Shown here one piece after another: positions 1,033-44,616 of a stretch of 64,000 nt of DNA (position 1 is the first letter of the stretch; each line of letters opens with the position of its first letter). A program made the position numbers and the translations under genes. The notes below the pieces were generated by a model. That model was not told the origin of the DNA and did no database searches. It saw nothing but the letters and a program-made list of their open reading frames with translations. Source of the DNA: Antedon mediterranea (lineage: Eukaryota > Animalia > Echinodermata). The DNA is taken from positions 36,152,437-36,216,436 of the forward strand of contig NC_092672.1 of NCBI RefSeq assembly GCF_964355755.1. The letters are read 5' to 3'.

Positions 1033-2102
1033 CTGATGTCCCATCGAAATAAATAAATAAGAAACACAGCAACTGTCAAGAAAGCTGCAGAGCTACAAGT
1101 TGCAATGATAATAATCACCGTCACATCATAGCATTTTAAAGAGTCTGCATCGAAATTTAAAATACTCGTTTCGTTTTTGTTTTTACATGTTGTATGTTCA
1201 GTGTTAATGAATGTGACGTTAGTTTGATTTATCCATCGACGAAACCATACAAGATTACAATCACAATTAAGTGGATTGTAAGCAAATCCAAACTTAACTA
1301 ACTTTGTTAAATTTTGAATTCCGACTTTTTGATTTAATGTCGTTATTTTGTTATTTTGAATTGTAAAATATGCTATTTCTGGTGAACCTAAAAAAACGTC
1401 ATCATGTATTTTACTGAGCGCGTTGTGTGAAAAGTCGACATTTTGTAGAAACGGGTGGTTTCTAAAGATATCAGGAGGGAAACTGGTAATCAAGTTTGAA
1501 GTCAAATAAACTGTATTCAATTTACGACAATTGTTAAAACTTCCACTTTGTATAGTTTTAACTGAAGAATATCTCATATATAGAACTTCTAATGATATCA
1601 ATTTCTGGAACCAAATTCTTTTAACATGTGTAAGAGCACGGTTGTAGTTTAGCTGAAGAAATGTTAGCTTCGAGAGACCATCAAACGCTTGATCGCTTAT
1701 TGTTGTATATCCCAGAAGATTACCGTCCAGATTTAGTAAAGTCATATCGTAGAAATTAACTAAATCGTCTGATTCAATTGTGGTGATATGGTTTTCATCA
1801 AGTCGCAGAAGTCCAACATCAACAGGTATATCTTCCTTAGGAATATGTTTGAATGATTTCTCTCTACAATTAACAGAATGAACAATGTATATTTCAGATG
1901 ACGAAAAGTGGGGGCAATATTTACAGGTACAAGTTTGTGGGCACTTCGTTGTGTTTGGTAGTTGAGTTCCATTTATTCTAAACGGATTGTATGACGTACA
2001 ACCAGTAATTCTTGTTCCATTTTCCACTACCAACAACAATAATAAATAAATAATAATAATAATGACGTAAGTCTTGCTGAAACCTGTACTCACATTTGCC
2101 AT
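1033..2102 (-). CDS. V1: LRR ectodomain + TM cassette (short TLR-like), divergent member
   Basis: Hydrophobic N-terminus, CPxxCxC LRRNT, ~7 LRRs, NPLNCDCxLxWF LRRCT, TM. Ends ATC AG|GTAAGT, so the ORF's TAA lies inside the donor. Confidence 0.9.
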
Positions 2103-2436
2103 CTTTCATGAGTTCTGATGTCAATTTCCGGTTTCGCTTCCTTTTCACGAGGTTAAATCTATCGAGTATTAGGCAAACATTCACTTTCGGAAGTAATAGG
2201 TTTAGAAACAAGTGGCCTTGGTGGTTTATGTTTTTCTTTACCTGTTTTAGTTTGTTCTTTTAATGTTGGTCAAATAAATAAGTAAAACTAAATGAAAAAT
2301 GGAATAAATAAATAAATAATTACATGAAAGTCTTCAGGTTTGTTTGTTTGTTTTTTTTATCTTTATACTGGGTGACCTCTTCAGTCAAAGACTGATCTCC
2401 CAGAGGGCCCAGTTGGTGATCAGTGACTGTGATGTA

Positions 2437-2655
2437 CTAATACACCGGGGTAACCCCCTACTCGTCTTGAAAGATGTACTAGGTTCTTTAAAGTGCACAC
2501 GAGCAAGTTGTGTACACTGGACCTACGGTTTATAGTCCTTATCCGAGAAGACTCGTTCTACCACCAGAACCATGGAGTGAGTGAGCCTCGAACCCCTGCC
2601 GATGTTATGGATACGTGATTACGGTTCCACTGTCTTAACCGCTCGGCCACTCACT
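2437..2655 (-). mobile_element. tRNA-derived SINE (same family as 53227-53460)
   Basis: Reverse complement has an A box (TGGCCGAGCGG) and B box (GGTTCGAGGC) and closely matches the + strand copy at 53.2 kb. Confidence 0.8.
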
Positions 2656-2699
2656 TCATGTTGGCAACATGAACGAGGACTGACTACAAATAAAAGGGG

Positions 2700-3283
2700 T
2701 AAAGAGTGTGACGTCATACCATACGTAGATTTACTATGTCCCATCGAAATACTATGAGAAAACCAGAAACAAGAAAGTTCTACAGAAAGTTGCAAAGATA
2801 GTAAGAAATGTGACGTCATAACATACGTAGACTTACCATGACCCATCGAAATAATATGAGAAAACCAAAAACTGACAAGAAAGTTCTACAAAGAGTTGCA
2901 AAGATAGTAACGAAATATGACGTCATAACATACATAGACTTACCATGTCCCATCGAAACACATAAATAAGAAAACCAGCAACTGTCAAGAAAGCCGCAGA
3001 GCTACAAGTTGCAATGATAATAATGATTGTGACGTCATAACATACGTAGACTTACCTGATACCTTATCGAAACACATAAATATGAAAACCAGCAATTGTC
3101 AAGAAAGCCGCAGATCTACAAGTTGTAATGACAATAGAGATTGTGACGTCATAACATACGTAGACTTACCTGATATCCCATCGAAACAGATAAATAAGAA
3201 AACCAGCAACTGTCAAGAAAGCTGCAGAGCTACAAGTTGCAATAATAATAATGATTGTGACGTCATAACATACGTAGACTTAC
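2700..3283 (-). repeat. ~5 copies of the TM + donor unit downstream of V2
   Basis: gacgtcataacatacgtagacttacc units; proximal spacing is 114 bp and distal copies are degenerate. Confidence 0.9.
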
Positions 3284-4323
3284 CTGATATCCCATCGAAA
3301 CAGATAAATAAGAAAACCAGCAACTGACAAGAAGGCTGCAGAGCTACAAGCTGCTATGATAATAATGGTTGTGACGTCATAACATCTGAGAGATTCTGCA
3401 TCAAAATTCATTATTGTTATATTTTTCTTGTGACATATAGCGTCATCAAGATCTGCGAACATAGCGTTAGTTTGATTAAGCCACTGACGAAACCATACTA
3501 GGCTACAATCGCAGCTCAGAGGATTGAATCCAAATCCAAACCGAAGTAATTTAGTTAAATTCTGAATTCCAACATCTTTACTAATCGTTCTGATTTGGTT
3601 GTTGTGTATAAAAAGATAGGAAATGTTTAAAGAATTCAAAAACATGTTATCTTCCAGATTGGTAATAGAATTACGAGAAAAATCGACGCTCTGTAGAAAT
3701 CTGTGATTTCTTAATATATCAGCAGGTAAACTTATTAGCTGGTTTCCTGTTAGGTGAACTGAAATCAGATTAACGCAATTTTTAAACACTCCACTCTGCA
3801 AAGTCTTTACAGCTGAATATCTAATGTGAACAGATGTTAGCGCAGTTAACTTTAAAAACCAAGCTCTTGGTATGTGCGAAAGAGCTCGATTGTAATCCAA
3901 GTATAATATTTCAAGTTTGGTGAGATTATTAAACGAATCATCGTCTATGTTATTGTACTGTAAGATATTATCAACCAATGTTAAAAGTGTCATTTCCCGA
4001 AAGTTAGCCAATGCATTAGACTTGATTCCACTAATGTCATTATAATTGAGACGTAAAGCGCCAACATCGACTGGGATATCTCTAGTTGGAATGTGACGAT
4101 ATTGTTTCCCTCTACACCTTACTTCATGGCTTGCATACATCTGTGTTTGGTCGATATGACGAATGCAATATACGCAAGTACATTCTTGTGGACACATCGT
4201 TGTATTTCGTGCTTGAGTTCCGTTTAATCTGAACGGATTGTATAATGTACACTTTCTCGAAGTGAAAGGTACAGCAATTACAAACGGCGTAAACACACAA
4301 AACAGAATGGCGTTGATATTCAT
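3284..4323 (-). CDS. V2: LRR ectodomain + TM cassette
   Basis: SP-LRRNT-LRRs-LRRCT-TM; ends at a phase-2 AG|GTAAGT donor. Confidence 0.9.
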
Positions 4324-5290: not shown

Positions 5291-6330
5291 CGGATGTCCC
5301 ATCGGAATGCATAAATAAGAAAACCAGCAACTGTCAGGAAAGCTGCAGAGCTACAAGTTGCAATTATAATAATGATTGTGACGTCATAGCATTTGAGAGA
5401 TTCTGCATCGAAATTCATCATTGTTATATTTTTCTTTTCACATATGGCGTCATCAATATTTATCAACGTAGCGTTAGTTTGGTTAAGCCACTGACGAAAC
5501 CATACTAGGCTACAATCGCAGCTCAGAGGATTGAATCCAAATCCAAACCGAAGTAATTTAGTTAAATTCTGAATTCCAACATCTTTACTAATCGTTCTGA
5601 TTTGATTGTTGTGTATAAAAAGATAGGAAATGTTTAAAGAATCCAAAAACATGTTATCTTCCAGATTGGTAATAGAATTACGCGAAAAATCGACGCTCTG
5701 TAAAAATCTGTGATTTCTTAATATATCAGCAGGTAAACTTGTTAGCTGGTTTCCTGTTAAGTGAACTGAAATCAGATTAACGCAATTTTTAAACACTCCA
5801 CTCTGCAAAGTCTTTACAGATGAATATCTAATGTGAACAGATGTTAGCGCAGTTAACTTTAAAAACCAAGCTCTTGGTATGTGCGAAAGAGCTCGATTAT
5901 AATCCAGGTATAATATTTCAAGTTTGGCGAGATTATTAAACGAATCATCGTCTATGTTATTGTACTGTAAGATATTATCAACCAATGTTAAAACTTTCAT
6001 TTTATGAAAGTTAGCCAAGTCATTAGACTTAATTCCACTAATGTGATTGGAATCGAGACGTAAAGTGCCAACATCAACTGGGATATCTCTGGTTGGAATG
6101 TGACGATATTGTTTCCCTATACACCTTACCTCATGGCTTGCATACTTATGTGTTTGGTCGATAAGACGAATGCAATATACGCAAGTACATTCGTGTGGAC
6201 ACATCGTTGTATTTCGTGCTTGAGTTCCGTTTATTCTGAACGGATTGTATGGCGTACACTCTTTCGAAGTGGAAGGTACAGCAGTTACACACAGCGTAAA
6301 CACACAAAACAGAGTAATGTTAATATTCAT
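5291..6330 (-). CDS. V3: LRR ectodomain + TM cassette
   Basis: ATG (MNINITLF) at 6330; the ORF-track start at 6360 is a TTG. Ends ATC CG|GTAAGT. Confidence 0.9.
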
Positions 6331-8698
6331 GTTTCCCAGATAAGTAAGTAATGGAAGCAAATCTTCACCTTGGAATAAATTTCATCCGTGTGCAGCTATA
6401 AATATAAAGTATTGTGCTTCCAAGGAAGTGTTTTTAAAACCACTATTAACGACAATTTTAGTTATTTACTTCCTGTTCTTATTGAACCAAGGTACACACT
6501 GTTTCTATACATTAACTATCTTATTGTTTGTTTTGTATCTTATTCAACAATTCTATTTGTTCTATTTTTCATTTTTCCAATCAACTCTGGCAGCTCCATA
6601 AGGCCTGGCATTTATTATACAATTTTGAAACTGCACACCACTCCCATGGTGGCAAACAAATCATCAAAATACAAATGGAATACAACAACAAATGTTAGAA
6701 TATAAGGGAAAGATATTCGATCGACTTCAAATTTAGGTATTGATGTAGTGGTGGCCCAGTGGTAGTCATGGTTCAACAGGGTTCAGCTCTTCTATCTAGA
6801 CTCAATAGTCTAGATAGACTATTTCCTATCGCCGTTCAATTGTAGTTCCAACCAGTATTCTGGGATCCATTATGTTTCTCATTTACCTCCTGATATTATC
6901 CATAATCGTCACAAAGATGGAGTTACTATCGCCAGCAAATGTAGAAAATAATATATTTATTTACAAACCAATCTCTAAATGTGTGTACATTCATTTCTTC
7001 ACTTAGCTATCAGTCTCTCGATCCACCTCTATTAAGCGACCGACATTAAAAAAGCGGCCATATCGTAAGCGCCTACCTCTCTAAAACGACCACACATCTT
7101 AAGCAACCGCACCCTCATTATCGAGGGGCCAACGTTTTCTATTAGCGGCTATTTTCTGTCTCCAGAAGTACACAGGTAGTAGGTAACAATTGACTCTTCA
7201 CTATTCATCAGACAGCCGTTAAAGCAACATCTTACTAAGTCAAATCAGTAAGACGTTTTCTCAATGAAGATGCTACATGTATGCTCGTTCATCTGGAATA
7301 TATTATTGCATAAAGTACTTTATTTACGGATTGCTTTTACTAAATATCACCGCTCGTCTTGTTTCTCGAACACACCCGAACATTTCACTCGTACATTCCA
7401 GCGTCTCAATTGGTTACCAACGGAACATCCACGTTCATTTATTTGTTTTCAAATATATTCGTCATATTTCCCCACCGCACATTTCTGAACTAATTCAGCT
7501 TTGTTTAGTAATATTTGCACTCTTACACTCGGATCAACATCAGATGAAACTGAACTCCCCATCATCCACACTGTCGGTTGAATGCATATGAAGAGCGACC
7601 GTTTATAGTTGCTGTGTTAAATTTGTTTTGAGAATTTTTATTCATAATTCGCCTTCTGTATTTTGAAAGAACGACTTAATATCATTTATTTTCGTCAGTT
7701 TAGTTTTCATTCTTGCCCGTCAGTTTTCATAGCCATACTAGAATAGAAGGTGCCTGATTCATGAGAAGGCAGAAACTCACTCAAACCATGGTTAGCGACA
7801 AGGGTGTATCATCATGTTTGTGTATTGCATGGACTTTTCCTTGAATATCTTTCACAGCATCTCGAAGTTTGTTTTGTTTTGTTTTTGCGCTTTAGAATTT
7901 CAAAGCTATAGTAACCAATAAATATTTTAATATCAAATTAAAATCAGTTTCCTAGAAAAACTATATCGTATGCCATGAAGGTAATAACACTATCAATGAT
8001 AATTAACCTTTCTGAAACCTTAATGAAATTGAAATTGAACAATATATAAATGCTTAGTTATGTTTTTTGCGTGAAATTTCTTCTCACAACCCAAATGTTG
8101 CACTGGTGTAAATATTCTTGTTACACTGCTTAGTATAGTATGTATGTCCATATAAAATAGTGAAAGGTTGCAATAATTTAAAGATTGAGGTAGAAGAAAT
8201 CAAGATAGGCCATTACATAGTTTCGACTAGACTTTATGTCCCATTTTCATTTTATAAAATGCTTCTTCTTTTTACATCCAATATATAATCGAAATCAAAA
8301 GAAAAAAACATTTAGAGCGAAATAGTATACAAAAATGATGAGTAAATGAGTAACAAAGTGTAAAAATGGAAATGTTTAAAATAAAAATAATGCACACAAA
8401 AGAAAGTAACAATAAGAACGCTATTAACAAGATACAAGAGGACGTCGCCATAACGTACGTAGACTTACCTGATGTTCCATCGAAGCACATAAATAAGAAA
8501 ACTAGCAACTGACACAAAAGCTGCAGAGCTACAAGTTGCAAAAATAGTGTAAAGAGTGTGAAGTCATAACATACGTAGACTTACCTGATGTCCCATCGGA
8601 ATGCATAAATAAGAAAACCAGCAACTGTCAAGAAAGCCGCAGATCTAAAAGTTGTAATGACAATAGAGATTGTGACGTCATAACATACGTAGACTTAC

Positions 8699-9732
8699 CT
8701 GATATCCCATCGAAACAGATAAATAAGAAAACCAGCAACTGACAAGAAGGCTGCAGAGCTACAAGCTGCTATGATAATAATGGTTGTGACGTCATAACAT
8801 CTGAGAGATTCTGCATCGAAATTCATTATTGTTATATTTTTCTTGTGACATACAGCGTCATCAAGATCTACAAACGTAACGTTAGTTTGATTAAGCCACT
8901 GACGAAACCATACTAGGCTACAATCGCAGCTCAGGGGATTGAATGCAAATCCAAACAGAAGTAATTTAGTTAAATTCTGAATTCCAACATCTTTACTAAT
9001 TGATCTTATTTGGTTTTTGTGTATAAAAATATTTGAAATGTTTGGAGAATCCAAAAACATGTTATCTTTCAGATTGGTAATATAATTACGCGAAAAATCG
9101 ACGTTCTTTAGAAATCTGTGATTTCTTAATATTTCAGCAGGTAAACTTGTTAGCTGGTTTCCAGTTAAGTGAACTGTTGTCAAGTTAACGCAATTTTTAA
9201 ACACTCCACTCTGCAAAGTCTTTACAGCTGAATATCTAATGTAAACATTTTCTAGTGAAGTTAACTTTAAAAACCAAGCTCTTTGTATGTGAGAAAGAGC
9301 TCGATTATAATCCAGGTATAATATTTTAAGTTTTGTGAGATTGTTAAACGAATCATCGTCTATGTTATTGTACTGTAAGATATTTCCAACCAATGTTAAA
9401 ACTGTCATTTCACGAAAGTTAGCCAATGCATTAGACTTGATTCCACTAATGTGATTGTAATTGAGACGTAAAGCGCCAACATCAACTGGGATATCTCTGG
9501 TTGGAATGTGACGAAATTGCTTTCTCATACACCTTACCTCATGGCTTGCATACATATGTGTTTCCTCGATAATGCAATATGGGCAAGTACATTCGTGTGG
9601 ACACATCGTTGTATTTTGTGCTTGAGTTCCGTTTATTCTGAACGGATTGTATGGCGTACACTCTTTCGAAGTGGAAGGTACAGCAGTTACAAACAGCGTA
9701 AACACACAAAACAGAGTAATGTTAATAGTCAT
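8699..9732 (-). CDS. V4: LRR ectodomain + TM cassette (near-identical to V7)
   Basis: ATG at 9732; same architecture; phase-2 donor. Confidence 0.9.
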
Positions 9733-10284
9733 GTTTCCCAGATAAGTAAGTAATGGAAGCAAATAAATTTCATCCGTGTGCTAGAAATATTAAGTATCCA
9801 AGGAAGTGTTTTTAAAACCACTATTAACGACCATTTGAGTTATTTCCTGTTCTTTGTGAACCAAGGTACACACTGTTCTACTGTATATTAACTATCTTAT
9901 TGTTTGTTTGTATCTTATTCAACCATCCTATTTGTTCTATTTGTCTTTATTTAAATCCACTCAGGCAGCTCCATAAGGCCTGGTATCTATTATTAATTAT
10001 TTAAGCTGCAGTGACACTCCATGGTGGAAACGCTCATATACAGTGCGTTCATAAAACCATCAAATACAAAAAAACAGATGGATACAATTTCAAATGGATA
10101 AATCTGGAAACAATACAGTAGATAGTTAATATTTTAAAAATACAAATTTTAAAATATAAGAAAGAGATTTTTGATCGACTTTAAGTTATTCCTGCAGTGC
10201 TGGTCATGGTTCAGCGGGGATCAGCTCTTCTATCTAGACCGTCAGGGGTAGACTCGTCACGTCCATCTTAGAGTTCCTTATTTT

Positions 10285-16673: not shown

Positions 16674-17713
16674 CTGATGTCCCATCGGAATGCATAAATA
16701 AGAAAACCAGCAACTGTCAAGAAAGCTGCAGAGCTACAAGCTGCTATGATAATAATGGTTGTGACGTCATAACATCTGAGAGATTCTGCATTGAAATTCA
16801 TTATTGTTATATTTTTCTTGTGACATACAGCGTCATCAAGATCTGCTAACACAGCGTTAGTTTGATTAAGCCACTGACGAAACCATACTAGGCTACAATC
16901 GCAGCTCAGGGGATTGAATGCAAATCCAAGCTGAAGTAATTTAGTTAAATTCTGAATTCCAACATCTTTACTGATTGTTGTTATTCTGTTTTTGTGTATA
17001 AAAAGACGTGAAATGTTTAGAGAATCCAAAAACATGTTATCTTCCAGATTGGTAATATAATTACGCGAAAAATCTACGTTTTGTAGAAATCTGTAATTTC
17101 TGAAAATACCAGCAGGTAACTGTGTTAGCTGGTTTCCTGTTAAGTGAACTGAAATCAGATTAACGCAATTTTTAAACACTCCACTCTGCAAAGTCTTTAC
17201 AGATGAATATCTAATGTGAACAGATGTTAGCGCAGTTAACTTTAAAAACCAAGCTCTTGGTATGTGCGAAAGAGCTCGATTATAATCCAGGTATAATGTT
17301 TCAAGTTTGGTGAGATTATTAAACGAATCATCGTCTATGTTATTGTACTGTAAGATATTATCAACCAATGTTAAAAGTGTCATTTCCCGAAAGTTAGCCA
17401 ATGCATTAGACTTGATTCCACTAATGTCATTATAATTGAGACGTAAAGCGCCAACATCGACTGGGATATCTCTAGTTGGAATGTGACGATATTGTTTCCC
17501 TCTACACCTTACTTCATGGCTTGCATACATCTGTGTTTGGTCGATATGACGAGTGCAATATACGCAAGTACATTCTTGTGGACACATCGTTGTATTTCGG
17601 GCTTGAGTTCCGTTTATTCTGAACGGATTGTATGGCGTACACTTTTTCGAAGTGAAAGGTACAGCAATTACAAACAGCGTAAACACACAAAACAGAATGG
17701 CGTTGATATTCAT
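16674..17713 (-). CDS. V5: LRR ectodomain + TM cassette
   Basis: Same architecture; phase-2 AG|GTAAGT donor. Confidence 0.9.
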
Positions 17714-18437: not shown

Positions 18438-19477
18438 CTGATATCCCATCGAAACACATAAATAAGAAAACCAGCAACTGTCAAGAAAGCTGCAGAGCTA
18501 CAAGCTGCTATGATAATAATGGTTGTGACGTCATAACATCTGAGAGATTCTGCATTGAAATTCATTATTGTTATATTTTTCTTGTGACATACAGCGTCAT
18601 CAAGATCTGCTAACACAGCGTTAGTTTGATTAAGCCACTGACGAAACCATACTAGGCTACAATCGCAGCTCAGGGGATTGAATGCAAATCCAAGCTGAAG
18701 TAATTTAGTTAAATTCTGAATTCCAACATCTTTACTGATTGTTGTTATTCTGTTTTTGTGTATAAAAAGACGTGAAATGTTTAGAGAATCCAAAAACATG
18801 TTATCTTCCAGATTGGTAATATAATTACGCGAAAAATCTACGTTTTGTAGAAATCTGTAATTTCTGAAAATACCAGCAGGTAACTGTGTTAGCTGGTTTC
18901 CTGTTAGGTGAACTGAAATCAGATTAACGCAATTTGTTAACACTCCACTTTGTAAAGTCTTTACAGATGAATATCTAATGTAAACAGATTTTAACGCAGT
19001 TAACTTTAAAAACCAAGCTCTTGGTATATGAGAAAGAGCTCGATTGTAATCCAGGTATATTATTTCAAGTTTAATGAGATTATTAAACGAATCATCGTCT
19101 ATATAAGTGTACTGTAAGATATTATCAACCAATGTTAAAACGTTCATTTTATGAAAGTTAGCCAAGTCATTAGACTTAATTCCACTAATGTGATTGGAAT
19201 CGAGACGTAAAGTGCCAACATCAACTGGGATATCTCTGGTTGGAATGTGATGGAATCGCTTCTGCTTACACCTTACCTCATGGCTTGCATACATCTGTGT
19301 TTGGTCGATATGACTAATGCAGTATACGCAATAACAATCGTTTGGACAAATCGTTGTATTTCGTGCTTGCGTTCCGTTTACTCTGAACGGATTGTATGGC
19401 GTACACTTTTTCGAAGTGGAAGGTACAGCAATTACACACAGCGTAAACACACAAAACAGAGTAATGTTAATATTCAT
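18438..19477 (-). CDS. V6: LRR ectodomain + TM cassette
   Basis: Same architecture; phase-2 donor. Confidence 0.9.
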
Positions 19478-25991: not shown

Positions 25992-27031
25992 CTGATGTCC
26001 CATCGGAATGCATAAATAAGAAAACCAGCAACTGTCAGGAAAGCTGCAGAGCTACAAGTTGCAATGATAATAATGATTGTGACGTCATAGCATCTGAGAG
26101 ATTCTGCATCGAAATTCATCATTGTTATATTTTTCTTTTCACATATGGCGTCATCAATATTTATCAACGTAGCGTCAGTTTGGTTAAGCCACTGACGAAA
26201 CCATACTAGGCTACAATCGCAGCTCAGAGGATTAAATGCAAATCCCAACCGAAGTAATTTAGTTAAATTCTGAATTCCAACATCTTTACTAATTGTTCTT
26301 ATTTGATTTTTGTGTATAAAAAGACGTGAAATGTTTAGAGAATCCAAAAACATGTTATCTTCCAGATTGGTAATAGAATTACGCGAAAAATCGACGTTCT
26401 TTAGAAATCTGTGATTTCTTAATATATCAGCAGGTAAACGTATGAGCTGGTTTCCAGTTAAGTGAACTGAAATCAGATTAACGCAATTTTTAAACACTCC
26501 ACTTTGTAAAGTCTGTACAGCTGAATATCTAATGTAAACAGATTTTAACGCAGTTAACTTTAAAAACCAAGCTCTTGGTACGTGAGAAAGAGCTCGATTA
26601 TAATCCAGGTATAATGTAGTGAGTTTAATAAGATTATTAAACGAATCATCCTCTATGTTATTGTACTGTAAGATATTATCAACCAATGTTAAAACTATAA
26701 TTTCACGAAAGTTAGCCAATGCATTAGACTTGATTCCACTAATGTGATTATAATTGAGATGTAAATAGCCAACATCGACAGGGATATCTCTGGTTGGAAT
26801 GCGATGAAATTGCTTCTGTGTGCACCTTACTTCATGGCTTGCATACATATGTGTTTGGTCGATATGACGAATGCAATATACGCAAGAACATTCGTGTGGA
26901 CACATCGTTGTATTTCGTGCTTGAGTTCCGTTTATTCTGAACGGATTGTATAATGTACACTTTCTCGAAGTGGAAGGTACAGCAATTACAAACAGCGTAA
27001 ACACACAAAACAGAATGGTGTTGATATTCAT
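25992..27031 (-). CDS. V8: LRR ectodomain + TM cassette
   Basis: Same architecture; phase-2 donor. Confidence 0.9.
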
Positions 27032-28009: not shown

Positions 28010-29598
28010 CTTTGACGTCAACAAACGTAGACTTTCCGTACTTGATGTCCCATCTAAACAGATAAACAAGCTACAGAGCTACAATTTACAATTATTGGTA
28101 TGAGTGTGACGTCATGCCATTCGTGGACTTACCTGATATCCCAACTAAACAGATAAACAAGAACACCAGCAACTGATAGTAAAACTACAGAGCTACATTA
28201 CAAGGATTGGTGAGTGTGACGTCATGCCATTCGTAGACTTACCTGATATCCCAACTAAACAGATAAACAAGAAATCCGGCAACTGATAGCAAAGCTACAG
28301 AGGTACAAGTTGCAATGATTGGTATGAGTGTGACTCATGTCATACATAGACTTACCTGATATCCCATCTAAACAGATAAACAAGAAATCCAGCAACTGAT
28401 AGCAAAGCTGCAGAGGTACAAGTTGCAATGATTGGTATGAGTGTGACTCATGTCATACATAGACTTACCTGATATCCCAACTAAACAGATAAACAAGAAA
28501 TCCAGCAACTGATAGCAAAGCTACAGAGGTACAAGTTGCAATGATTGGTATGAGTGTGACTCATGTCATACATAGACTTACCTGATATCCCAACTAAACA
28601 GATAAACAAGAAATCCAGCAACTGATAGCAAAGCTACAGAGGTACAAGTTGCAATGATTGGTATGAGTGTGACTCATGTCATATATAGACTTACCTGATA
28701 TCCCAACTAAACAGATAAACAAGAAATCCAGCAACTGATAGCAAAGCTGCAGAGGTACAAGTTGCAATGATTGGTATGAGTGTGACTCATGTCATATATA
28801 GACTTACCTGATATCCCAACTAAACAGATAAACAAGAAATCCAGCAACTGATAGCAAAGCTGCAGAGGTACAAGTTGCAATGATTGGTATGAGTGTGACT
28901 CATGTCATACATAGACTTACCTGATATCCCAACTAAACAGATAAACAAGAAATCCAGCAACTGATAGCAAAGCTACAGAGGTACAAGTTGCAATGATTGG
29001 TATGAGTGTGACTCATGTCATACATAGACTTACCTGATATCCCAACTAAACAGATAAACAAGAAATCCAGCAACTGATAGCAAAGCTGCAGAGGTACAAG
29101 TTGCAATGAGTGGTATGAGTGTGACTCATGTCATATATAGACTTACCTGATATCCCAACTAAACAGATAAACAAGAAATCCAGCAACTGATAGCAAAGCT
29201 GCAGAGGTACAAGTTGCAATGAGTGGTATGAGTGTGACTCATGTCATATATAGACTTACCTGATATCCCAACTAAACAGATAAACAAGAAATCCGGCAAC
29301 TGACAAGAAAGCTACAGAGCTACAAGTTGCAATGATTGGTATGAGTGTGACTCATGTCATATATAGACTTACCTGATATCCCAACTAAACAGATAAACAA
29401 GAAATCCAGCAACTGATAGCAAAGCTACAGAGCTACAAGTTGCAATGATTGGTATGAATGTGACTCATGTCATACATAGACTTACCTGATATCCCATCTA
29501 AACAGATAAACAAGAAATCCAGCAACTGATAGCAAAGCTGCAGAGGTACAAGTTGCAATGATTGGTATGAGTGTGACTCATGTCATACATAGACTTAC
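28010..29598 (-). repeat. 113-bp TM + donor tandem array, ~14 copies, downstream of V9
   Basis: gacttacc occurs every 113 bp from 28236 to 29592, with more degenerate copies at ~28126 and ~28030. Confidence 0.97.
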
Positions 29599-30637
29599 CT
29601 GATATGATATCCCATCTAAACAGATAAACAAGAAATCCGGCAACTGATAGCAAAGCTGCAGAGGTACAAGTTGCAATGATAGTGCCTGTAGCGATCCCGA
29701 CGTCATAACATGTCAAGGAAGCTGCATCGAATTGTAATAAAGTCGTTCCATTTCGGTTTTTACATTTTGCGTATTGCATGTCAATCAATTTTACTTTAGT
29801 TCGATTTATCCACTGACGAAACCAAACAAGGTTGCAATCGCAACTGAAGGGATTAAATCCAAATCCAAATTTAACAAGTTTAGTTAAATTTTGAATTCCA
29901 ACTTCTTCGTTTACTTCTGTTAGTTTGTTTTGTTGTATATAAAGTCTTGTTACATTTGGTGAACCATGAAACATATCGTTATGGAGGATACCAATTTGAT
30001 TGTAGCGTATACCAACATTACTTAGAAATGGCAGATTGTGAAATAGATCGATAGGAAGTTCTGATATTTGATTTCCAGAAAGATATACATTCTCTAGTTG
30101 ACCACAATTCTCAAATAAATCCTTGTCGAGAGTTTTTACAAGACAATGTCTTATCGATATAGACCGTAATGATCGCAAGTTTTGAAACCATATTTTACGA
30201 AGATTAATCAAATTTAAATTAAAGTCCAGAAATAAAGTCTTTAGATTTGCTTGACCGACAAAGATATTATGAAGATAACTAAATTGTAGCCTATTGTAAC
30301 GCAAATCAATCGTATCAAGCTGTGAAAAGTTTAGCAAACTTGTATTGCTAATAGTTGTAAGTTCATTGCCACTTAAGCTAAGTTCTGTTACATCCACTGA
30401 AATATGTGAAGGTACACGTGAATATCCTTTACGTTGGCAATTCACTATATGTCGCATCCAAGCCGAGTGTTTTAGGTATGTTGGGCAATATTTACACTGA
30501 CATCTGTCTGGGCAAATTGTAGTATTTTTGTCTGCTGTTCCATTGATTCGAAATTGGTTGTATTTATAACACGTACAGCTGACTTCAAGTACAAGGCTTA
30601 ATGAAGCAACGGACTTTAAAACCTGAAATAAGAACAT
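29599..30637 (-). CDS. V9: LRR ectodomain + TM cassette (second subfamily), donor shifted out of phase by a 5-bp duplication
   Basis: ATG MFLFQVL at 30637. gatatgatat at 29601-29610 gives WDIIS G|GT (phase 1); unspliced read-through stops at 29498. Confidence 0.8.
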
Positions 30638-31494: not shown

Positions 31495-33672
31495 TTTGAC
31501 GTCAACAAACGTAGACTTTCCGTACTTGATGTCCCATCTAAACAGATAAACAAGAAATCCAGCAACTGACCAGAAAGCTACAGAGCTACAAGTTGCAATG
31601 ATTGAAATGAGTGTGACACATTTCATGCATAGACTTACCTGATATCCCATCTAAACAGATAAACAAGAAAACCAGCAACTGATAGCAAAGCTACAGAGCT
31701 ACAAGTTGCAATGATTGGTATGAATGTGACTCATGTCATACATAGACTTACCTGATATCCCAACTAAACAGATAAACAAGAAATCCAGCAACTGATAGCA
31801 AAGCTGCAGAGGTCCAAGTTGCAATGATTGGTATGAGTGTGACTCATGTCATACATAGACTTACCTGATATCCCAACTAAACAGATAAACAAGAAATCCA
31901 GCAACTGATAGCAAAGCTACAGAGCTACAAGTTGCAATGATTGGTATGAATGTGACTCATGTCATACATAGACTTACCTGATATCCCAACTAAACAGATA
32001 AACAAGAAATCCAGCAACTGATAGCAAAGCTACAGAGGTACAAGTTGCAATGATTGGTATGAGTGTGACTCATGTCATATATAGACTTACCTGATATCCC
32101 AACTAAACAGATAAACAAGAAATCCAGCAACTGATAGCAAAGCTACAGAGGTACAAGTTGCAATGATTGGTATGAGTGTGACTCATGTCATACATAGACT
32201 TACCTGATATCCCAACTAAACAGATAAACAAGAAATCCAGCAACTGATAGCAAAGCTACAGAGCTACAAGTTGCAATGATTGGTATGAGTGTGACTCATG
32301 TCATACATAGACTTACCTGATATCCCAACTAAACAGATAAACAAGAAATCCAGCAACTGATAGCAAAGCTACAGAGCTACAAGTTGCAATGATTGGTATG
32401 AATGTGACTCATGTCATATATAGACTTACCTGATATCCCATCTAAACAGATAAACAAGAAATCCAGCAACTGATAGCAAAGCTACAGAGGTACAAGTTGC
32501 AATGATTGGTATGAGTGTGACTCATGTCATACATAGACTTACCTGATATCCCAACTAAACAGATAAACAAGAAATCCAGCAACTGATAGCAAAGCTACAG
32601 AGCTACAAGTTGCAATTATTGGTATGAGTGTGACTCATGTCATACATAGACTTACCTGATATCCCAACTAAACAGATAAACAAGAAATCCAGCAACTGAT
32701 AGCAAAGCTGCAGAGGTACAAGTTGCAATGATTGGTATGAATGTGACTCATGTCATACATAGACTTACCTGATATCCCATCTAAACAGATAAACAAGAAA
32801 TCCAGCAACTGATAGCAAAGCTGCAGAGGTACAAGTTGCAATGATTGGTATGAATGTGACTCATGTCATACATAGACTTACCTGATATCCCAACTAAACA
32901 GATAAACAAGAAATCCGGCAACTGATAGCAAAGCTGCAGAGGTACAAGTTGCAATGATTGGTATGAGTGTGACTCATGTCATACATAGACTTACCTGATA
33001 TCCCAACTAAACAGATAAACAAGAAATCCAGCAACTGATAGCAAAGCTACACAGGTACAAGTTGCAATGATTGGTATGAATGTGACTCATGTCATACATA
33101 GACTTACCTGATATCCCAACTAAACAGATAAACAAGAAATCCAGCAACTGATAGCAAAGCTACACAGGTACAAGTTGCAATGATTGGTATGAGTGTGACT
33201 CATGTCATACATAGACTTACCTGATATCCCAACTAAACAGATAAACAAGAAATCCAGCAACTGATTGCAAAGCTACAGAGGTACAAGTTGCAATGATTGG
33301 TATGAGTATGACTCATGTCATATATAGACTTACCTGATATCCCAACTAAACAGATAAACAAGAAATCCAGCAACTGATAGCAAAGCTGCAGAGGTACAAG
33401 TTGCAATGATTGGTATGAGTGTGACTCATGTCATATATAGACTTACCTGATATCCCAACTAAACAGATAAACAAGAAATCCAGCAACTGATAGCAAAGCT
33501 ACAGAGCTACAAGTTGCAATGATTGGTATGAGTGTGACTCATGTCATACATAGACTTACCTGATATCCCATCTAAACAGATAAACAAGAAATCCAGCAAC
33601 TGATAGCAAAGCTGCAGAGGTACAAGTTGCAATGATTGGTATGAGTGTGACTCATGTCATACATAGACTTAC
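31495..33672 (-). repeat. 113-bp TM + donor tandem array, ~19 copies, downstream of V10
   Basis: gacttacc occurs every 113 bp from 31632 to 33666 (18 intervals), plus a degenerate distal copy near 31510. Confidence 0.97.
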
Positions 33673-34706
33673 CTGATATCCCATCTAAACAGATAAACAA
33701 GAAATCCGGCAACTGATAGCAAAGCTGCAGAGGTACAAGTTGCAATGATAGTGCCTGTAGCGATCCCGGGGTCATAACATGTCAATGAAGCTGCATCGAA
33801 TTGTAATAAATTCGTTCCATTTCTGTTTTCACATTTTGCGTTTTCCATTTCAACCAATTTTACTTTAGTTCGATTTATCCACTGACGAAACCAAACAAGG
33901 TTGCAGTCGCAACTGAAGGGATTAAATCCAAATGCAAATTCATAAAACTTAGTTAAATTTTGAATTCCTACTCTTTGATTTACTTCTGTTAATTTGTTGT
34001 TTTCCATATAAAGTCGTGTTACATTTGGTGAACCATGAAACATATCGTTATGGAGAACACCAAGTTGATTGTAGCGTATATCCACTTTACTTAGGAATGG
34101 CAGATTGTGAAAGAGATTACTAGGAAGTCTTGATATTTGATTTCCAGAAAGATATACATTCTCTAGTTGACCACAATTCTCAAATAAATCCTTGTCGAGA
34201 GTTTTTACAAGACAATGTGTTATCGATATAGACCGTAATGATAGCAAGTTTCGAAACCATATTTTACGTAGATTAACCAAATTGTCATTAAAGTCCAGAA
34301 ATAAAGCCTTTAGATTTACTTGACTGTCAAAGATATTATGAAGATAACTAAATTGTAGCCTATTGTAACGCAAATCAATTATATCAAGCTGTGAAAAGTT
34401 TATCAAACTTGTATTGCTAATAGTTGTAAGTTCATTGCCACTTAAGTTAAGTTCTGTTACATCCACTGGAATATGTGAAGGTATACGTGAATATCCTTTA
34501 CGTTGGCAATTCACTATATGTCGCATCGTCGCCGAGTGTTTCAGGTATTTTGGGCAATATTTACAATGACATCTGTCTGGGCAAGTTGTAGTGTTTCTGT
34601 CTGCTGTTCCATTGATTCGAAATTGGTTGTATTTATAACACGTACAGCTGACTTCAAGTAGAAGGCTTAATGAAGCAATGGACTTTAAAACCTGAAATAA
34701 GAACAT
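33673..34706 (-). CDS. V10: LRR ectodomain + TM cassette (second subfamily)
   Basis: SP-LRRNT-LRRs-NPFSCDC LRRCT-TM; phase-2 AG|GTAAGT donor. Confidence 0.9.
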
Positions 34707-35456
34707 TCTGAAATATCTGGAAGTGTTGGGTGGAAGAATTCAGCCTGTAGTCTGAACTTAGTGCGTATAGTTTGTTGTAGATAATCTTAAAAATTGAAGA
34801 AAGATTCCTGGTTTGCCAATTCCTCTGATTAAGATGTCTACGTAGAACTCTTTTTGAATATTTCTCCCTTCTTAACTTGCACATCGTTTAACCTAAAATA
34901 CTGTGCTTATGGTATTCACTTTCCTAGAGTTAGAAGCGAAATGAAAGGAAGTGACCGAGGCGCACCTATATGTTGTTTATTGTTTCCTGCTTTGGTAAAA
35001 ATGAGTGAAACATAATGTAAATTTAAAACGTACTACGTCTGTTTAAATGTTATGGATGAGAACAAGTAATTAAAAGCTACAGATGCAAACACATTGTAAG
35101 GAGTGTGATCATAACATACGTAGACCTACCTTATATCCCATCAAAATACATAAATAAGAAAACTAGCAACTGTCAAGAAAGCTGCAGAGCTACAAGTTGC
35201 TATGATAATAATGGTTGTGACGTCATGGACAACAACAATGCAGAGTTGAAAGATATAAAAAAAGTGCAATACCATACCTTATCTCGCTTCTAAATGAATA
35301 ATCAGTATATATCACCCAGTACAGCTATGCGATTCTTATTGGTGCTTTTAGGTGTTTTTTTTTCTATTTTATTTTTAATATTTTACTTTTTTAATGTTCC
35401 TGTATTGTATTTCTTGTGTAAATTGCCTCCTTTTTTTATATATAATTATCATTGGT

Positions 35457-35557
35457 TTTACTCTGAATGGATTGTATAATTTACACTTTTTCGAAGTGGA
35501 AGGTACAGCAATTACAAACAGCGTAAATACACAAAACAGAATAACTTTAATATTCAT
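35457..35557 (-). pseudogene. 5' fragment of a V13-like cassette (signal peptide to YNPFRV)
   Basis: MNIKVILFCVFTLFVIAVPSTS..YNPFRV, then homology is lost. The upstream ~230 bp matches the V13 upstream region (~44620-44850). Confidence 0.85.
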
Positions 35558-36119
35558 GCTGATAATTTGTGCTTTTATTATCAAGTGGAGTTACGTTGGG
35601 TTGGAGACCATGGAGGTTGACATCACCTTGACAATTGAGGACAGAGGCTACTTACAGTCGAATTGTCTGGTCAAAATTGTACTATATAATCTCTGTTGTT
35701 CCGTTGATGAAAAATTATCGTTGAAATTATCAAGTATAGAACTGACTTTAAACCTAAGCCTAAGAAAACAATGCACTTCAACACAAATCAATTTATTTCC
35801 TCAATGTTCTTCCTAAGCCCGATACATAAAGAGGGCGCGCTATAAGGAACAAGTAAATAATTATTTTCTCAATAATATGATTGAAATGACCAATAATGGT
35901 TCCTCATTATAGGTCGTGTTTCCGCAGCCAAAAATTAACTGATAATTAACCGATAAACTGCCTTCGGAAACGGGGTTTAACCATGGTTTAACCGATTCCG
36001 TAGTAAAATTTCAAAAAGTAAAGACGACGGAATTTCACGCTAAGCTCCGCCCACTTTGTTAAAGCTCATGCATAAATTAATCATGAGCACCGTCCTGTGG
36101 CTTCCCATCGTGTTTCGTA

Positions 36120-36710
36120 AACAGATCGATAGGAAGTTCTGATATTTGATTTCCAGAAAGATACACATTCTCTAGTTGACCACAATTTCAAATAAATCCT
36201 TGTCGAGAGTTTTACAAGACAATGTGTTATCGATATAGAACGTAACGACCGCAAGTTTCGAAACCATATTTTAGGAAGGTTAATCAAATTTAAATTAAAG
36301 TGCAGAAATATAGTCTTTAGATTTGCTTGACTGTCAAAGATATGAAGATAACTAAATTGTAGGCTATTGTAACGCAAATCAATTTTATCAAGCTGTGAAA
36401 AGTTTATCAAACTTGTATTGCTAATAGTTGTTAGTTCATTGCCACTTAAGTTAAGTTCTGTTACATCCACTGGAATATGTGAAGGTATACGTGAATATCC
36501 TTTACGTTGGCAATTCACTATATGTCGCATCGTCGCCGAGTGTTTCAGGTATTTTGGGCAATATTTACAATGACATCTGTCTGGGCAAGTTGTAGTGTTT
36601 CTGTCTGCTGTTCCATTGATTCGAAATTGGTTGTATTTATAACACGTACAGCTGACTTCAAGTAGAAGGCTTAATGAAGCAATGGACTTTAAAACCTGAA
36701 ATAAGAACAT
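36120..36710 (-). pseudogene. Truncated, frameshifted duplicate of V10
   Basis: First ~110 codons and the upstream flank are nearly identical to V10. Single-base deletions near 36210 and 36185; homology ends near 36120. Confidence 0.9.
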
Positions 36711-37355: not shown

Positions 37356-38398
37356 CTGATATCCCATCGAAACAGATAAATAAGAAAACCAGCAACTGAC
37401 AAGAAAGCTGCAGAGCTACAAGTTGCAATGATAATAATGGTTGTGACGTCATAACATCTGAGAGATTCTGCATCGAAATTCATTATTGTTATATTTTTCT
37501 TGACACATATAGCGTCATCAAGATCTGCTAACACAGCGTTAGTTTGATTAAGCCACTGACGAAACCATACTAGGCTACAATCGCAGCTCAGAGGATTGAA
37601 TCCAAATCCAAACTGAAGTAATTTAGTTAAATTCTGAATTCCAACATCTTTATTAATTGATCTTATTTGGTTGTTGTGTATAAAAAGATAGGAAATGTTT
37701 AAAGAATCCACAAACATGTTATCTTCCAGATTGGTAATAGAATTACGCGAAAAATCAACGTTCTTTAGAAATCTGTGATTTCTTACTATATCAGCAGGTA
37801 AACTTGTTAGCTGGTTTCCAGTTAAGTGAATTGAAGTTAGATTAACGCAATTTTTAAACACTCCACTTTGCAAAGTCTTTACAGCTGAATATCTAATGTA
37901 AATATTTTCTAATGCAGTTAACTTTAAAAACCAAGCTCTTGGTATGTGCGAAAGAGCTATATTGTAATCCAGATTTAATATTTCAAGTTTAGTGAGATAA
38001 TTAAACGAATCACCGTCTATATAGTTGTACTGTAATTTATTTGCAGTCAATATTAATACTTCCATTTTTCGAAAATTAGCCAATTCTTCAGATTTGATTC
38101 CACTAATGTGATTGTAATCAAGACGTAAATAGCTAACGTCGATAGGGATATCTCTGGCTGGAATGTGACGAAATTGCTTCTGCTTACACCTTACTTCATG
38201 GCTTGCATACATATGTGTTTCATCGATATGACGAATGCAGTATACGCAATAACATTCACGTGGACAAATCGTTGTATTCGGTGCTTGAGTTCCGTTTATT
38301 CTGAACGGATTGTATGAGGTACCGGTACAGTCCTTTGCCGAAATAGATACATTTGTCATCAGCATAAACACATAAAACAGAGTAATGTTAATATTCAT
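37356..38398 (-). CDS. V11: LRR ectodomain + TM cassette
   Basis: ATG at 38398 (ORF-track start is a GTG); phase-2 donor. Confidence 0.9.
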
Positions 38399-40344: not shown

Positions 40345-41384
40345 CTGATGTCCCATCGGAATGCATAAATAAGAAAACCAGCAACTGACAAGAAAGCTGC
40401 AGAGCTACAAGTTGCAATTATAATAATGATTGTGACGTCATAGCATTTGAGAGATTCTGCATCGAAATTCATCATTGTTATATTTTTCTTTTCACATATG
40501 GCGTCATCAATATTTATCAACGTAGCGTTAGTTTGGTTAAGCCACTGACGAAACCATACTAGGCTACAATCGCAGCTCAGAGGATTGAATCCAAATCCAA
40601 ACCGAAGTAATTTAGTTAAATTCTGAATTCCAACATCTTTACTAATCGTTCTGATTTGATTGTTGTGTATAAAAAGATAGGAAATGTTTAAAGAATCTAA
40701 AAACATGTTATCTTCCAGATTGGTAATAGAATTACGCGAAAAATCGACGCTCTGTAGAAATCTGTGATTTCTTAATATATCAGCAGGTAAACTTGTTAGC
40801 TGGTTTCCTGTTAAGTGAACTGAAATCAGATTAACGGAATTTTTAAACACTCCACTCTGCAAAGTCTTTACAGATGAATATCTAATGTGAACAGATGTTA
40901 GCGCAGTTAACTTTAAAAACCAAGCTCTTGGTATGTGCGAAAGAGCTCGATTGTAATCCAGGTATAATATTTCAAGTTTGGTGAGATTATTAAACGAATC
41001 ATCGTGTATGTTATTGTACTGTAAGATATTATCAACCAATGTTAAAATTGTCAGTTCACGAAAGTTAGCCAAGTCATTAGACTTAATTCCACTAATGTGA
41101 TTGGAATCGAGACGCAAAGTGCCAACATCAACTGGGATATCTCTGGTTGGAATGTGATGGAATCGCTTCTGCTTACACCTTACCTCATGGCTTGCATACA
41201 TCGGTGTTTGGTCGATATGACTAATGCAGTATACGCAATAACAATCGTTTGGACAAATCGTTGTATTTCGTGCTTGCGTTCCGTTTACTCTGAACGGATT
41301 GTATGGCGTACACTTTTTCGAAGTGGAAGGTACAGCAATTACACACAGCGTAAACACACAAAACAGAGTAATGTTAATATTCAT
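40345..41384 (-). CDS. V12: LRR ectodomain + TM cassette
   Basis: Same architecture; phase-2 donor. Confidence 0.9.
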
Positions 41385-43570
41385 GTTGTACCAGATACGT
41401 AACGCTAATAATTAAGATATTGATATGATATACTGCAGATGACCGTTGTCCACTTCATCTGTAAGCAGTGTTACAAATAAACTTTCTTCCTAAATAATTA
41501 GCGATGTATGTATGTAGGCCTACGTATAGTTTTTCTTCCGTGGAAGATAAGTAAGTAATGGAAGCAAATCCTCACCTTGGTATAAATTTTATCCGTGTTT
41601 TAGAAATATAAAGTATTGTGCTTCCAAGGAAGTGTTTTTAAAACCACTATATTTTGAGTTATTTTATTTCCTGTTCTCTGTGACCGAAGGTACACACTGT
41701 TATAATAATATCATTTTACTTCCGGTTGTGTGTCTTATTGGTTATCCGCAAGGTATTGTGGATAACGCAATTGTGATTGTCAGGATATTTTTTGTTCTTC
41801 TTCTTCTTTGTTTTGGCAGTCTCTCTCTAAACCTTGAAAACTGAACATTTTGTAACTTTACCAGAATAACGTACGCGTGATTTTATTAAAGCTTATGATT
41901 GATCATAAATTCTGAACTAAACGACATTTCTTAATGAAACTTGTTAAAAGTATACTTATAATATGGGGCTTTTTTTAATTATGAATGCGTGTAACATTTG
42001 TACCAACCGGATATTGTGACTTCATCATATTATTTTTCCTCTTTTGTACTAGTTAATCACATTTAATAGAGAGCATCGCGCTTATTCGTATTCCATGTTC
42101 TTTTTCAATCTATTGTCTTTCACATGTGTTACAAACATTTTAATTTATGACGTCATCATGTAAAAAAAATAGAATAACTTGGGTTACTTAATTTCATTTC
42201 AAAATTGTATCTATCGGATGTCGTAATATTATCAAATGGCCAGTTGAACGTCTATACCACGTTATTATACAAAATTGAGGACTGCAATTATCTTACCGTA
42301 CTCCGAAACATCAAATCAGTAAGACGTTTTTTCAATGAAGATGCTACATGTATGCTCGTTCATCTGGAATAGATTATTGCAATAGAGTTCTTTATTTACG
42401 GATTGCTTTCCTCATCAGCTTTTACTAAATATCACCGCTCATCTTGTTTCTCGAACACTACCGAAGGAACACACCCGAACATTTCACTCGTACATTCCAG
42501 CGTCTCAATTGGTTACCAGTGAAACATCCACGTTCATTTATTTGTTTTCAAATAATTATATTATTGAGAATTTGTATTCATGATTCACATTCTGTATTTT
42601 GAAAGAACGGATTAACACCTTTTTATTTTCGTCAGTTTACTTTTCATTCTTGCCCGTCAGTTTTCATAGCCTTAATAGGATAGAAGGCGCCTGATTCATG
42701 AGATGACAGAAACTTACTGAAACCATGGTTAGGGCGTATTGATAATCATGTTTGGGTATTGCATGGACTTTTCCTTGAATATCTTTCACAACATCTCGAA
42801 GTTTGTTTTGTCTTGTTTTTGCGCTTTAGCATTTCAAAACTATAGTAACCAATAAATATTAATCAATACGGTATCCCTAGAAAACCTATATCGTACGCCA
42901 TGAAAGTAATCAATAACACTATCAAACGATAGGCCTACTTAACCTTTCTGAAAACTTAATGAAATATTGAAAAAGCTGCTCAGGAACTGAAAACTATATA
43001 AATGCTTAGTTATTTTGTTTGCGTATAAGTAATAAATTATTTCCTCACAGCGCAAATACTGCCATGGTGTAAATATTCTTGTTACACTGCTTAGTATAGT
43101 ATTTATGTCCTTATAAAATAGTGAAAGATTGCAAATAATTTAAAGATGGTTGTAGAAGAAATCAAGATATGCCATTACATAGTTACGACTAGACTTTATG
43201 TCCCATTTTCATTTTATAAAATGTTTCTTCTTTTTACATCCAATATATAATGGAAATAAAAAGAACAAAAACATTTAGAGCGAAAGACTATACAAAAATG
43301 ATGCCGTGAGTAAATGAGTGTTAAATGTAAAAATGGAAATGTTTAAAATAAAAATAATACTTACAAAGGAAAGTAAGAATAAGAACGCTATTAACAAGAT
43401 GACGTCACCATAACGTACGTAGATTGTGACGTCATAACGTACGTAGACTTACCTGATGTTCCATCGAAGCACATAAATAAGAAAACTAGCAACTGACACA
43501 AAAGCTGCAGAGCTACAAGTTGCAAAAATAGTGTAAAGAGTATATGAAGTCATAATATACGTAGACTTAC

Positions 43571-44616
43571 CTGATGTCCCATCGGAATGCATAAATAAGA
43601 AAACCAGCAACTGTCAGAAAAGCTGCAGAGCTGCAAGTTGCAATGATGGCAATGATTGTGACGTCATAGCATCTGAGAGATTCTGCATCGAAATTCATTA
43701 TTGTTATATTTTTCTTGTGACATACAGCGTCATCAAGATCTGCTAACACAGCGTCAGTTTGATTAAGCCACTGACGAAACCATACTAGGCTACAATCGCA
43801 GCTCAGAGGATTGAATGCAAATCCAAAACCATGTAATTTAGTTAAATTCTGAATTCCAACATCTTTACTAATCATTCTTATTTGATTGTTGTGTATAAAA
43901 AGATAGGAAATGTTTAAAGAATCTATAAACATGTTATCTTCCAGATTGGTAATAGAATTACGCGAAAAATCAACGCTCTGTAGAAATCTGTGATTTCTGA
44001 ATATATCAGCAGGTAAACTTATTAGCTGGTTTCCACTTAAATAAACTCTAGTCAAGTTAACGCAATTTTTAAACACTCCACTTTGTAAAGTCTTTACAGC
44101 TGAATATCTAATGTAAACATTTTCTAGTGAAGTTAACTTTAAAAACCAAGCTCTTTGTATGTGAGAAAGAGCTCGATTATAATCCAAGTATAATATAGTG
44201 AGTTTAATGAGATTATTAAACGAATCATCGTCTATACTGCTGTACTGTAAGATATTTCCTGTCAATACTAAACTTTCCATTTCTCTAAAGTCAGCTAATT
44301 CTTTAGCATTAATTTCACTAATATGATTGTAAACGAAATGTAAAGAGGCAACGTCGACTGGAATATCATGGGTGGGAATGCGTTTGAAGTTGTTCCAATC
44401 ACAGCTAACATAATGCCTTGAATATAAAACTCGGCTGTGGGTCGTGTAAAGGCAGTATTGACATACACATTCGTGCGGGCACACCGTTGTATTCCGCGAT
44501 TGAGTTCCGTTAATTCTGAGCGGATTGTATGGCGTACCGGCGGTACACGTGGATGTGGAAGGTACAGCAATTACAGACAGAGTAAATACACAAAACAGAA
44601 TAACTTTAATATTCAT
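43571..44616 (-). CDS. V13: 5'-most LRR ectodomain + TM cassette
   Basis: ATG at 44616; divergent LRRNT; phase-2 donor. Confidence 0.9.

Follow-up and report, generated by a model that had tools for sequence, protein, structure and literature searches.

A tandem array of Toll-like receptor sensor exons in the crinoid Antedon mediterranea, predicted to share one TIR exon

How could a family of receptor sensors signal when each member ends at its membrane anchor and no signalling domain lies between one member and the next? A 64,000-nucleotide (nt) stretch of the Antedon mediterranea genome (NC_092672.1, positions 36,152,437 to 36,216,436; hereafter “the window”) raises this question. Six-frame translation of the window reveals 13 full-length open reading frames (ORFs) of one family at 1032-44649, all on the minus strand, in keeping with the same-strand cassettes of the original prediction, together with one additional truncated copy at 36743-36084 (-). 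We numbered these cassettes from V1, the leftmost and 3′-most, to V13, the 5′-most (Table 1). Each comprises, in order, a hydrophobic N-terminus, an N-terminal leucine-rich repeat (LRR) cap (LRRNT), eight LRRs, a C-terminal cap (LRRCT) and a transmembrane (TM) segment. The cassettes span 344-356 codons from the ATG and are separated by spacers of 724-6941 nt. With 13 exons of similar size on one strand, 12 of them ending in phase 2, the array has the layout of a variable-first-exon cluster. Reading the sequence in this way, we consider it probable that the array is one Toll-like receptor (TLR) gene in which about 12 alternative sensor exons would be joined to one TIR exon left of position 1.

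The array is not an assembly artefact, as the cassettes differ from one another at 2-58% of residues. The regions 8449-10512 and 21784-23840, which contain V4 and V7, form a 2-kb duplication with 98% identity; this pair could be a very recent or a haplotypic duplicate.

The cassettes have the LRR ectodomain with LRRNT and LRRCT caps and the single TM helix of a Toll-like receptor. Pfam LRR_8, LRR_5 and LRR_4 matches were found in all four cassettes scanned, and a hydrophobic TM segment is present in all 13. The cap cysteines are conserved across cassettes, except that V7 has lost one LRRNT cysteine. An AlphaFold model of V2 (30-row alignment; predicted local distance difference test score (pLDDT) 89.3, predicted template modeling score (pTM) 0.81) shows an LRRNT β-hairpin, eight LRR strands where about seven had been claimed, an LRRCT helix, and a helix at residues 317-341 that corresponds to the hydrophobic TM stretch; the first 22 residues are modeled with low confidence. 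The solved folds nearest to this model are the Nogo receptor, GPIb-alpha and the variable lymphocyte receptors, at ~20% identity, so that the fold match says no more than “short capped LRR solenoid”. A protein search with V2 is more specific: it returned six matches among 814 candidates, of which two are close, namely the TIR-bearing crinoid TLRs XP_071944931.1 from Antedon mediterranea (431 aa) and XP_033112181.1 from Anneissia japonica (526 aa). By these sequence comparisons, each cassette is predicted to encode the outer LRR sensor of a short crinoid Toll-like receptor together with its membrane anchor.

We found no TIR in the window, either by tblastn (best E 3.8) or with a profile hidden Markov model of 17 TLR tails from crinoids and hemichordates (best E 1.1). 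These searches bear out the claim that the spacers lack such a domain and rule out private cytoplasmic TIR exons there; the spacers may contain a short non-TIR exon. The RefSeq protein XP_071944931.1, annotated as “TLR2”, indicates where the tail may lie. Its residues 1-214 are identical to V4 (214/214), and residues 215-251 are encoded (36/37) by a downstream repeat unit that carries a TM end and a splice donor (Table 1). The protein then continues past a W-D-I-R junction into YWNQRR and a TIR domain (PF01582), for which the window holds no match. Since this TIR lies outside the window, the last intron of the model must cross V3, V2 and V1, three intact cassettes. The predicted position of the tail beyond the window is thus supported by a gene model in which window sequence is followed, at W-D-I-R, by a TIR. 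A metagenome scan with XP_071944931.1 gave 25 pattern matches and no relatives.

We then asked how many tails of this kind the two crinoids carry, in a comparison based throughout on automatic gene models. The TM and TIR portion of an Anneissia protein, used as the query, gave 19 matches among 685 candidates of 289-921 aa and one match among 69 candidates of 30-288 aa; proteins longer than 921 aa were covered via 50% representatives, of which the best 150 were considered. At 30-921 aa, a single Antedon protein carries this TIR subtype, namely XP_071944931.1; its tail shares 60-67% identity with other Antedon TLR tails, among them that of the 1617-aa model described below. In Anneissia the subtype is represented by seven tails, which share 87-91% identity with the Antedon tail and 85-98% with one another, no two being the same. 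At least four of the TIR-bearing Anneissia models (P0007, P0017, P0025 and P0026) lie on one scaffold. Among the seven closest TIR-bearing Anneissia homologues, six keep the junction region, and all six run W-D-I/F-R-Y-W-N-Q into the TIR. A partial Anneissia model, P0024, stops at RWDI, and the homology of a TIR-only model, P0143, begins at the same junction, suggesting that the W-D-I-R intron is an ancestral exon border. A further Anneissia model, XP_033111563.1 (P0043), consists of the sensor alone and stops just after RWDIR, beside TIR-bearing scaffold-mates. Overall, the Anneissia homologues appear from their models to be mostly separate two-exon genes, with orphan sensor exons there too.

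The one shared tail of the original prediction remains putative, with indirect support from the RefSeq model that spans V1-V3 and from the single Antedon TIR of the subtype. The Anneissia scaffold lends some weight to a different arrangement, in which several constant TIR exons would lie left of the window and combine with the variable exons, possibly by trans-splicing as in the chelicerate shortened Dscam genes. In a related form of this alternative, a single 5′ leader near V13 would precede the cassettes, which would be used as mutually exclusive internal exons; some cassette ATGs are preceded by acceptor-like AGs, and a GTAAGT occurs 98 nt before the V13 ATG. However, the single Antedon protein of the subtype speaks against several tails, and a strict splice-acceptor pattern is found upstream of 0/13 cassettes, making this alternative very unlikely in our view.

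Three other gene models are of note. In the 1617-aa Antedon model XP_071944250.1 (P0027), three complete TLRs in tandem, every one with a TIR of its own, are fused; it represents a conventional TLR cluster in Antedon itself. P0012 from Anneissia and P0029 from Ptychodera flava (XP_070557404.1) each have an additional ectodomain or TM end before a complete short TLR; these may be orphan sensor exons, which would then occur in a hemichordate and in a second clade of crinoid TLRs.

In 12 of the 13 cassettes, the coding sequence ends in W-D-I plus AG or CG, followed by GTAAGT (phase 2), and all twelve donor coordinates given in the original prediction are correct (the lower coordinates in Table 1 are the last exon bases). 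The in-frame stop of these cassettes is always bases 2-4 of the consensus donor; as background, of 1212 TAA triplets counted in the flank at 45-64 kb, four lie within GGTAAGT. All cassettes (13/13) agree at intron positions +1 to +8, with variation further on. V9 keeps the GTAAGT behind a 5-nt duplication and would therefore splice out of phase; read through the donor, it has a 35-residue tail after W-D-I.

The donors are part of a larger repeated unit, which the original prediction did not mention. The TM end, the donor and about 35 nt of intron form a tandem repeat with a unit of 108-118 bp and 1.8-19.7 copies, which follows most cassettes. The window contains 56 W-D-I-[AC]G/GTAAGT sites, 12 of them at cassette ends; by a looser pattern, the donor is kept in 54/60 W-D-I units, most of which are repeat copies. 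The TM segments of V1, V2/V13 and V9/V10 are identical to one another at 20-23 of 26 positions, compared to 11-17 of 26 for the Anneissia homologues. Similarly, synonymous codon differences (over few codons) amount to 0.18-0.37 in the TM/donor block versus 0.45-0.54 in the ectodomain. The block has thus been homogenised among the Antedon lineages, and the conservation of the donor across V1, V9/V10 and the V2-type subfamily does not amount to three independent observations. The conservation itself, as originally claimed, stands; its weight as evidence is less than claimed, given the homogenised block and the 54/60 units that keep a donor.

V9/V10 group with three full-length Anneissia TLRs and one partial model (support 99/95), and the approximately unbiased (AU) test rejects a tree in which all 13 Antedon cassettes form one clade (p-AU 0.0005; 23 rows, TM block removed, with the group named after the first tree and the distant hemichordate and long-branch rows left out). 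The array thus includes lineages whose Anneissia members have a TIR, but itself lacks one. V1 is 54-57% identical to the V2 type and 42-47% identical to V9/V10, and is saturated at silent sites relative to the V2 type. By these sequence comparisons, the array contains at least two old lineages and probably three.

Among nine V2-type cassettes (V7 was left out as 98% identical to V4), the ratio of nonsynonymous to synonymous differences (pN/pS) is 0.15 in the core, 0.43 at other LRR positions and 1.26 on the concave face, as defined by the LxxLxLxxN pattern; these values come from pairwise counts on recombining sequences and are descriptive only. Variable columns make up 27/40 of the concave face and 39/109 of the other LRR positions (Fisher p=7e-4). 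A conserved core with a varied concave face is, as far as sequence can tell, the pattern of working, diversifying ligand sensors, and says nothing in itself about splicing. The 13 open frames and the core pN/pS also rule out dead pseudogenes.

Recombination has left traces in the array. V5, V6 and V12 are patchworks of their neighbours, with blocks showing 0-2 differences per 120 nt to different partners. These mosaic blocks, the homologous minisatellite behind most cassettes and the 3′ ends homogenised across old lineages would also fit a silent reservoir, in which most cassettes are silent where they stand and either donate sequence to an expressed cassette through gene conversion or come to lie next to the TIR exon after a deletion across the minisatellite. 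Yet in 13/13 cassettes the frame is open and starts with an ATG and a hydrophobic N-terminus, and the core shows the constraint described above. Moreover, V1, the proximal cassette, has diverged so far from the V2 type that it is evidently not receiving V2-type ectodomain sequence. We accordingly give DNA-level switching of this kind little credence.

Several observations weigh against a single spliced gene, in addition to the homogenised donor block, whose conservation is weak evidence of use, and the descriptive nature of the pN/pS values. The middle of XP_071944931.1 is doubtful: the model drops ~100 residues comprising the last LRRs and the LRRCT, and, mapped to the window, exits V4 at an internal GT and re-enters at an AG inside V4's own donor. 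No full-length Antedon protein of ~530 aa combining a cassette with a TIR was found in our protein searches, and the V2 sequence has no entry in the protein collection searched. By inspection, no fixed-position motif is common to the upstream regions of all cassettes. There may be unannotated TIR exons or more cassettes left of position 1. Read through the donor, 12 cassettes yield a clean protein ending in W-D-I-R-stop, and the ORF of V9 is intact despite its inability to splice in frame.

The last two points suggest another reading, in which use of the TIR exon is limited to the one or two proximal cassettes and the others are read through, stop at W-D-I-R and serve as tail-less decoys or co-receptors. 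Tail-less receptors of this general kind include RP105/CD180 and the LRR-only partners of Hydra. For 12 of the 13 cassettes the product would be a complete LRR-TM protein whose tail is five residues long, Anneissia P0043 likewise stops just after RWDIR, and homogenisation alone may keep the donor. In contrast, the RefSeq model skips V1-V3, and the stop codon always falls within a consensus donor at the ancestral intron position. The putative polyadenylation signals AATAAA and ATTAAA are scattered at 139-1470 nt behind the donors, against a background of 1.6 AATAAA per kb, and neither motif occurs within 1.5 kb behind the V9 and V10 donors. Overall, we judge tail-less receptors to be unlikely as the general product of the array.

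The contorted path of XP_071944931.1 bears on the same question. An evidence-free predictor would simply choose the intact cassette, so we infer that junction evidence at donor 8585 forced the path of the model, which would fit such evidence. Moreover, the nucleotides before donor 8585 are identical to the ends of V5 (53), V13 (46), V8 (46) and V12 (43), and short reads from these distal cassettes could therefore map there.

Returning to one gene with a shared TIR exon, we propose the following scheme. Each cassette would start from its own upstream region, presumably with its own promoter. The first W-D-I-R donor of the cassette would join the common TIR exon, completing the Arg codon, and the intervening downstream cassettes would be removed as intron. 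Such a gene could have arisen from two-exon TLR genes, the apparent state in Anneissia, if the sensor exon alone was duplicated and the private TIR exons were lost, with unequal crossing-over through the TM-donor minisatellite homogenising the 3′ ends. As a speculation, splicing from a later donor of the repeat would retain the TAA in the transcript, giving a tail-less or degraded form; the tandem donors could in this way act as a switch, the first donor giving the signalling form of a cassette and a later one the form that lacks a tail or is degraded. A fuller version, which we put forward tentatively and regard as somewhat doubtful in its entirety, is a protocadherin-like TLR gene in which ~12 promoter-chosen sensor exons serve one TIR. 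These exons would descend from three or more old lineages, with recombination shuffling them and diversification on their ligand face; different coelomocytes may then express different subsets.

The upstream regions offer limited material on promoter choice. ACTTCC/GGAAGT, which we take to be an ETS-like motif, lies within 250 nt upstream of 10/13 cassettes (0.14 expected per 250 nt), with copies that are not independent. It occurs at varying positions within related sequence, and V8, V9 and V13 have none. A 101-bp tandem repeat (27072-27485, 4.1 copies, 98%) fills the region directly upstream of V8.

The proposed layout has well-described precedents outside the TLRs. In clustered protocadherins alpha and gamma, UGT1A and GCNT2, large same-frame variable exons with their own promoters are separately spliced to constant exons (PMC1885805). 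The Antedon array resembles these clusters in its tandem, similar, same-phase variable exons that encode the recognition part with no constant exon between them. As in the protocadherins, for which gene conversion is described in the same source, it combines gene conversion with diversified recognition residues; the constant part lies downstream there and is predicted to do so here. Unlike the protocadherin and UGT1A clusters, for which splicing and promoters are documented, the Antedon array is known from sequence and carries a TLR sensor as cargo. The tandem repeat of donors behind the exons is an Antedon feature that does not appear in the description of the clusters in PMC1885805.

Functionally, the closest likeness is Drosophila PGRP-LC, an innate immune receptor in which three isoforms place alternative ectodomains on one signalling tail (PMC6191721). 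In both cases, duplicated ectodomains share one tail by splicing, which is predicted for Antedon. PGRP-LC differs in that the variable part is 3′, the TM and cytoplasmic domains are common, the ectodomain is a PGRP domain, and the pathway is Imd (PMC6191721), compared to about 12 variable 5′ exons that include the TM segment in Antedon. The shortened Dscam genes of chelicerates are likewise invertebrate surface receptors with many 5′ variable cassettes, chosen there by alternative promoters; they differ in mediating homophilic adhesion through Ig/FnIII domains rather than carrying LRR and TIR domains, and in that trans-splicing has been shown (PMC9258826).

Among TLRs, the short Anneissia receptors (XP_033112181.1, XP_033111562/564/565.1, XP_033107376.1 and XP_033122969.1) share the short capped ectodomain and the W-D-I-R-Y-W junction, but each model has its own, non-identical TIR. 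The sea-urchin TLRs comprise 253 sequences, including five short ones with nine LRRs and, as a further class, four with one intron (PMC3367398). The short ones have nine LRRs between LRRNT and LRRCT versus eight in Antedon, a likeness that does not imply orthology, and the sea-urchin expansion proceeded by whole genes, unlike the proposed multiplication of the sensor alone in Antedon. The main text of PMC3367398 nowhere contains the string “splic”. In line with the original prediction, the literature titles and abstract openings searched, mostly open-access, contain no description of a TLR with variable first exons on a common TIR. The protocadherin/UGT1-type layout is thus known, and the TLR cargo is probably new.

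If the shared-TIR reading is true, multiplying the sensor alone while keeping one signalling exon would be a further way for a deuterostome to diversify its innate receptors, in which recognition can evolve freely and the output is fixed. Such loci would escape TLR counts that rely on TIR domains; here, one RefSeq protein stands for 13 cassettes. With apparently separate genes and a few orphan sensor exons in Anneissia, a comparison of the two crinoids offers a test of whether variable-exon clusters originate from tandem genes, and would catch such a cluster in formation. Antedon mediterranea is a crinoid accessible in the laboratory (PMC11336682).

Table 1 Cassettes, cassette remnants and TM-donor repeats in the window.
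Feature	Coordinates	Strand	Remarks
V1 variable exon	1033..2102	-	phase-2 donor; in the window, nearest to the inferred TIR exon; own deep lineage
V2 variable exon	3284..4323	-	phase-2 donor
V3 variable exon	5291..6330	-	CG/GTAAGT phase-2 donor
V4 variable exon	8699..9732	-	residues 1-214 = RefSeq XP_071944931.1
V5 variable exon	16674..17713	-	mosaic: front V2-like, back V6-like
V6 variable exon	18438..19477	-	mosaic: front V12-like, back V5-like
V7 variable exon	22032..23065	-	98% identity to V4; conserved LRRNT cysteine to arginine
V8 variable exon	25992..27031	-	phase-2 donor
V9 cassette	29599..30637	-	ORF intact; donor out of phase through 5-nt duplication
V10 variable exon	33673..34706	-	V9/V10 cluster with Anneissia full-length TLRs
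Broken cassettes	35129..36710	-	three remnants between V10 and V11
Frameshifted, truncated V10-like copy	36710 to about 36084	-	part of broken-cassette stretch
V13-like start fragment	35557-35456	-	part of broken-cassette stretch
Degenerate TM-donor remnant	35239-35129	-	part of broken-cassette stretch
V11 variable exon	37356..38398	-	phase-2 donor
V12 variable exon	40345..41384	-	mosaic: front V6-like, back V3-like
V13 variable exon	43571..44616	-	5′-most; ATG 768 nt from ATG of divergent phospholipase A2 gene
TM-donor minisatellite behind V1	169..1105	-	108 bp, 8.8 copies
TM-donor minisatellite behind V2	2700..3385	-	114 bp, about 5.5 copies
TM-donor minisatellite behind V9	28068..29680	-	113 bp, 14.2 copies
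TM-donor minisatellite behind V10	31523..33749	-	113 bp, 19.7 copies
Shorter TM-donor arrays	8449-8800, 21668-22133, 25844-26064, 37101-37457, 43427-43643	-	
TM-donor repeat unit used by XP_071944931.1	8694-8584	-	codes residues 215-251 (36/37), with the model passing from its donor to the TIR exon; exon limits 8585..8693, inferred from protein

On its 5′ side, the array is bounded by a three-exon phospholipase A2 gene (45384-47006, +; Pfam Phospholip_A2_2), head-to-head with V13. A multi-exon gene at about 47380-49115 (-) encodes a cytochrome-b5-like heme/steroid-binding domain and is presumably neuferricin-like. The long V5-V4 spacer contains a frameshifted DDE_Tnp_4 transposase remnant (12460-13231, +), which we assume to be Harbinger-like. 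A dispersed repeat of very high copy number is present twice, in opposite orientation and with 94% identity, at 2428-2655 and 53234-53458. Four contig-set runs over 900-10000 each showed depth in 30/30 bins, and the joints and loose ends listed for these runs all come from the high-copy repeat at about 2400-2660, which also accounts for most of the depth. The region 54300-64000 has many short dispersed and tandem repeats and, among the ORFs listed, none of a clear family. A near-perfect 177-bp palindrome is located at 52747-52923.

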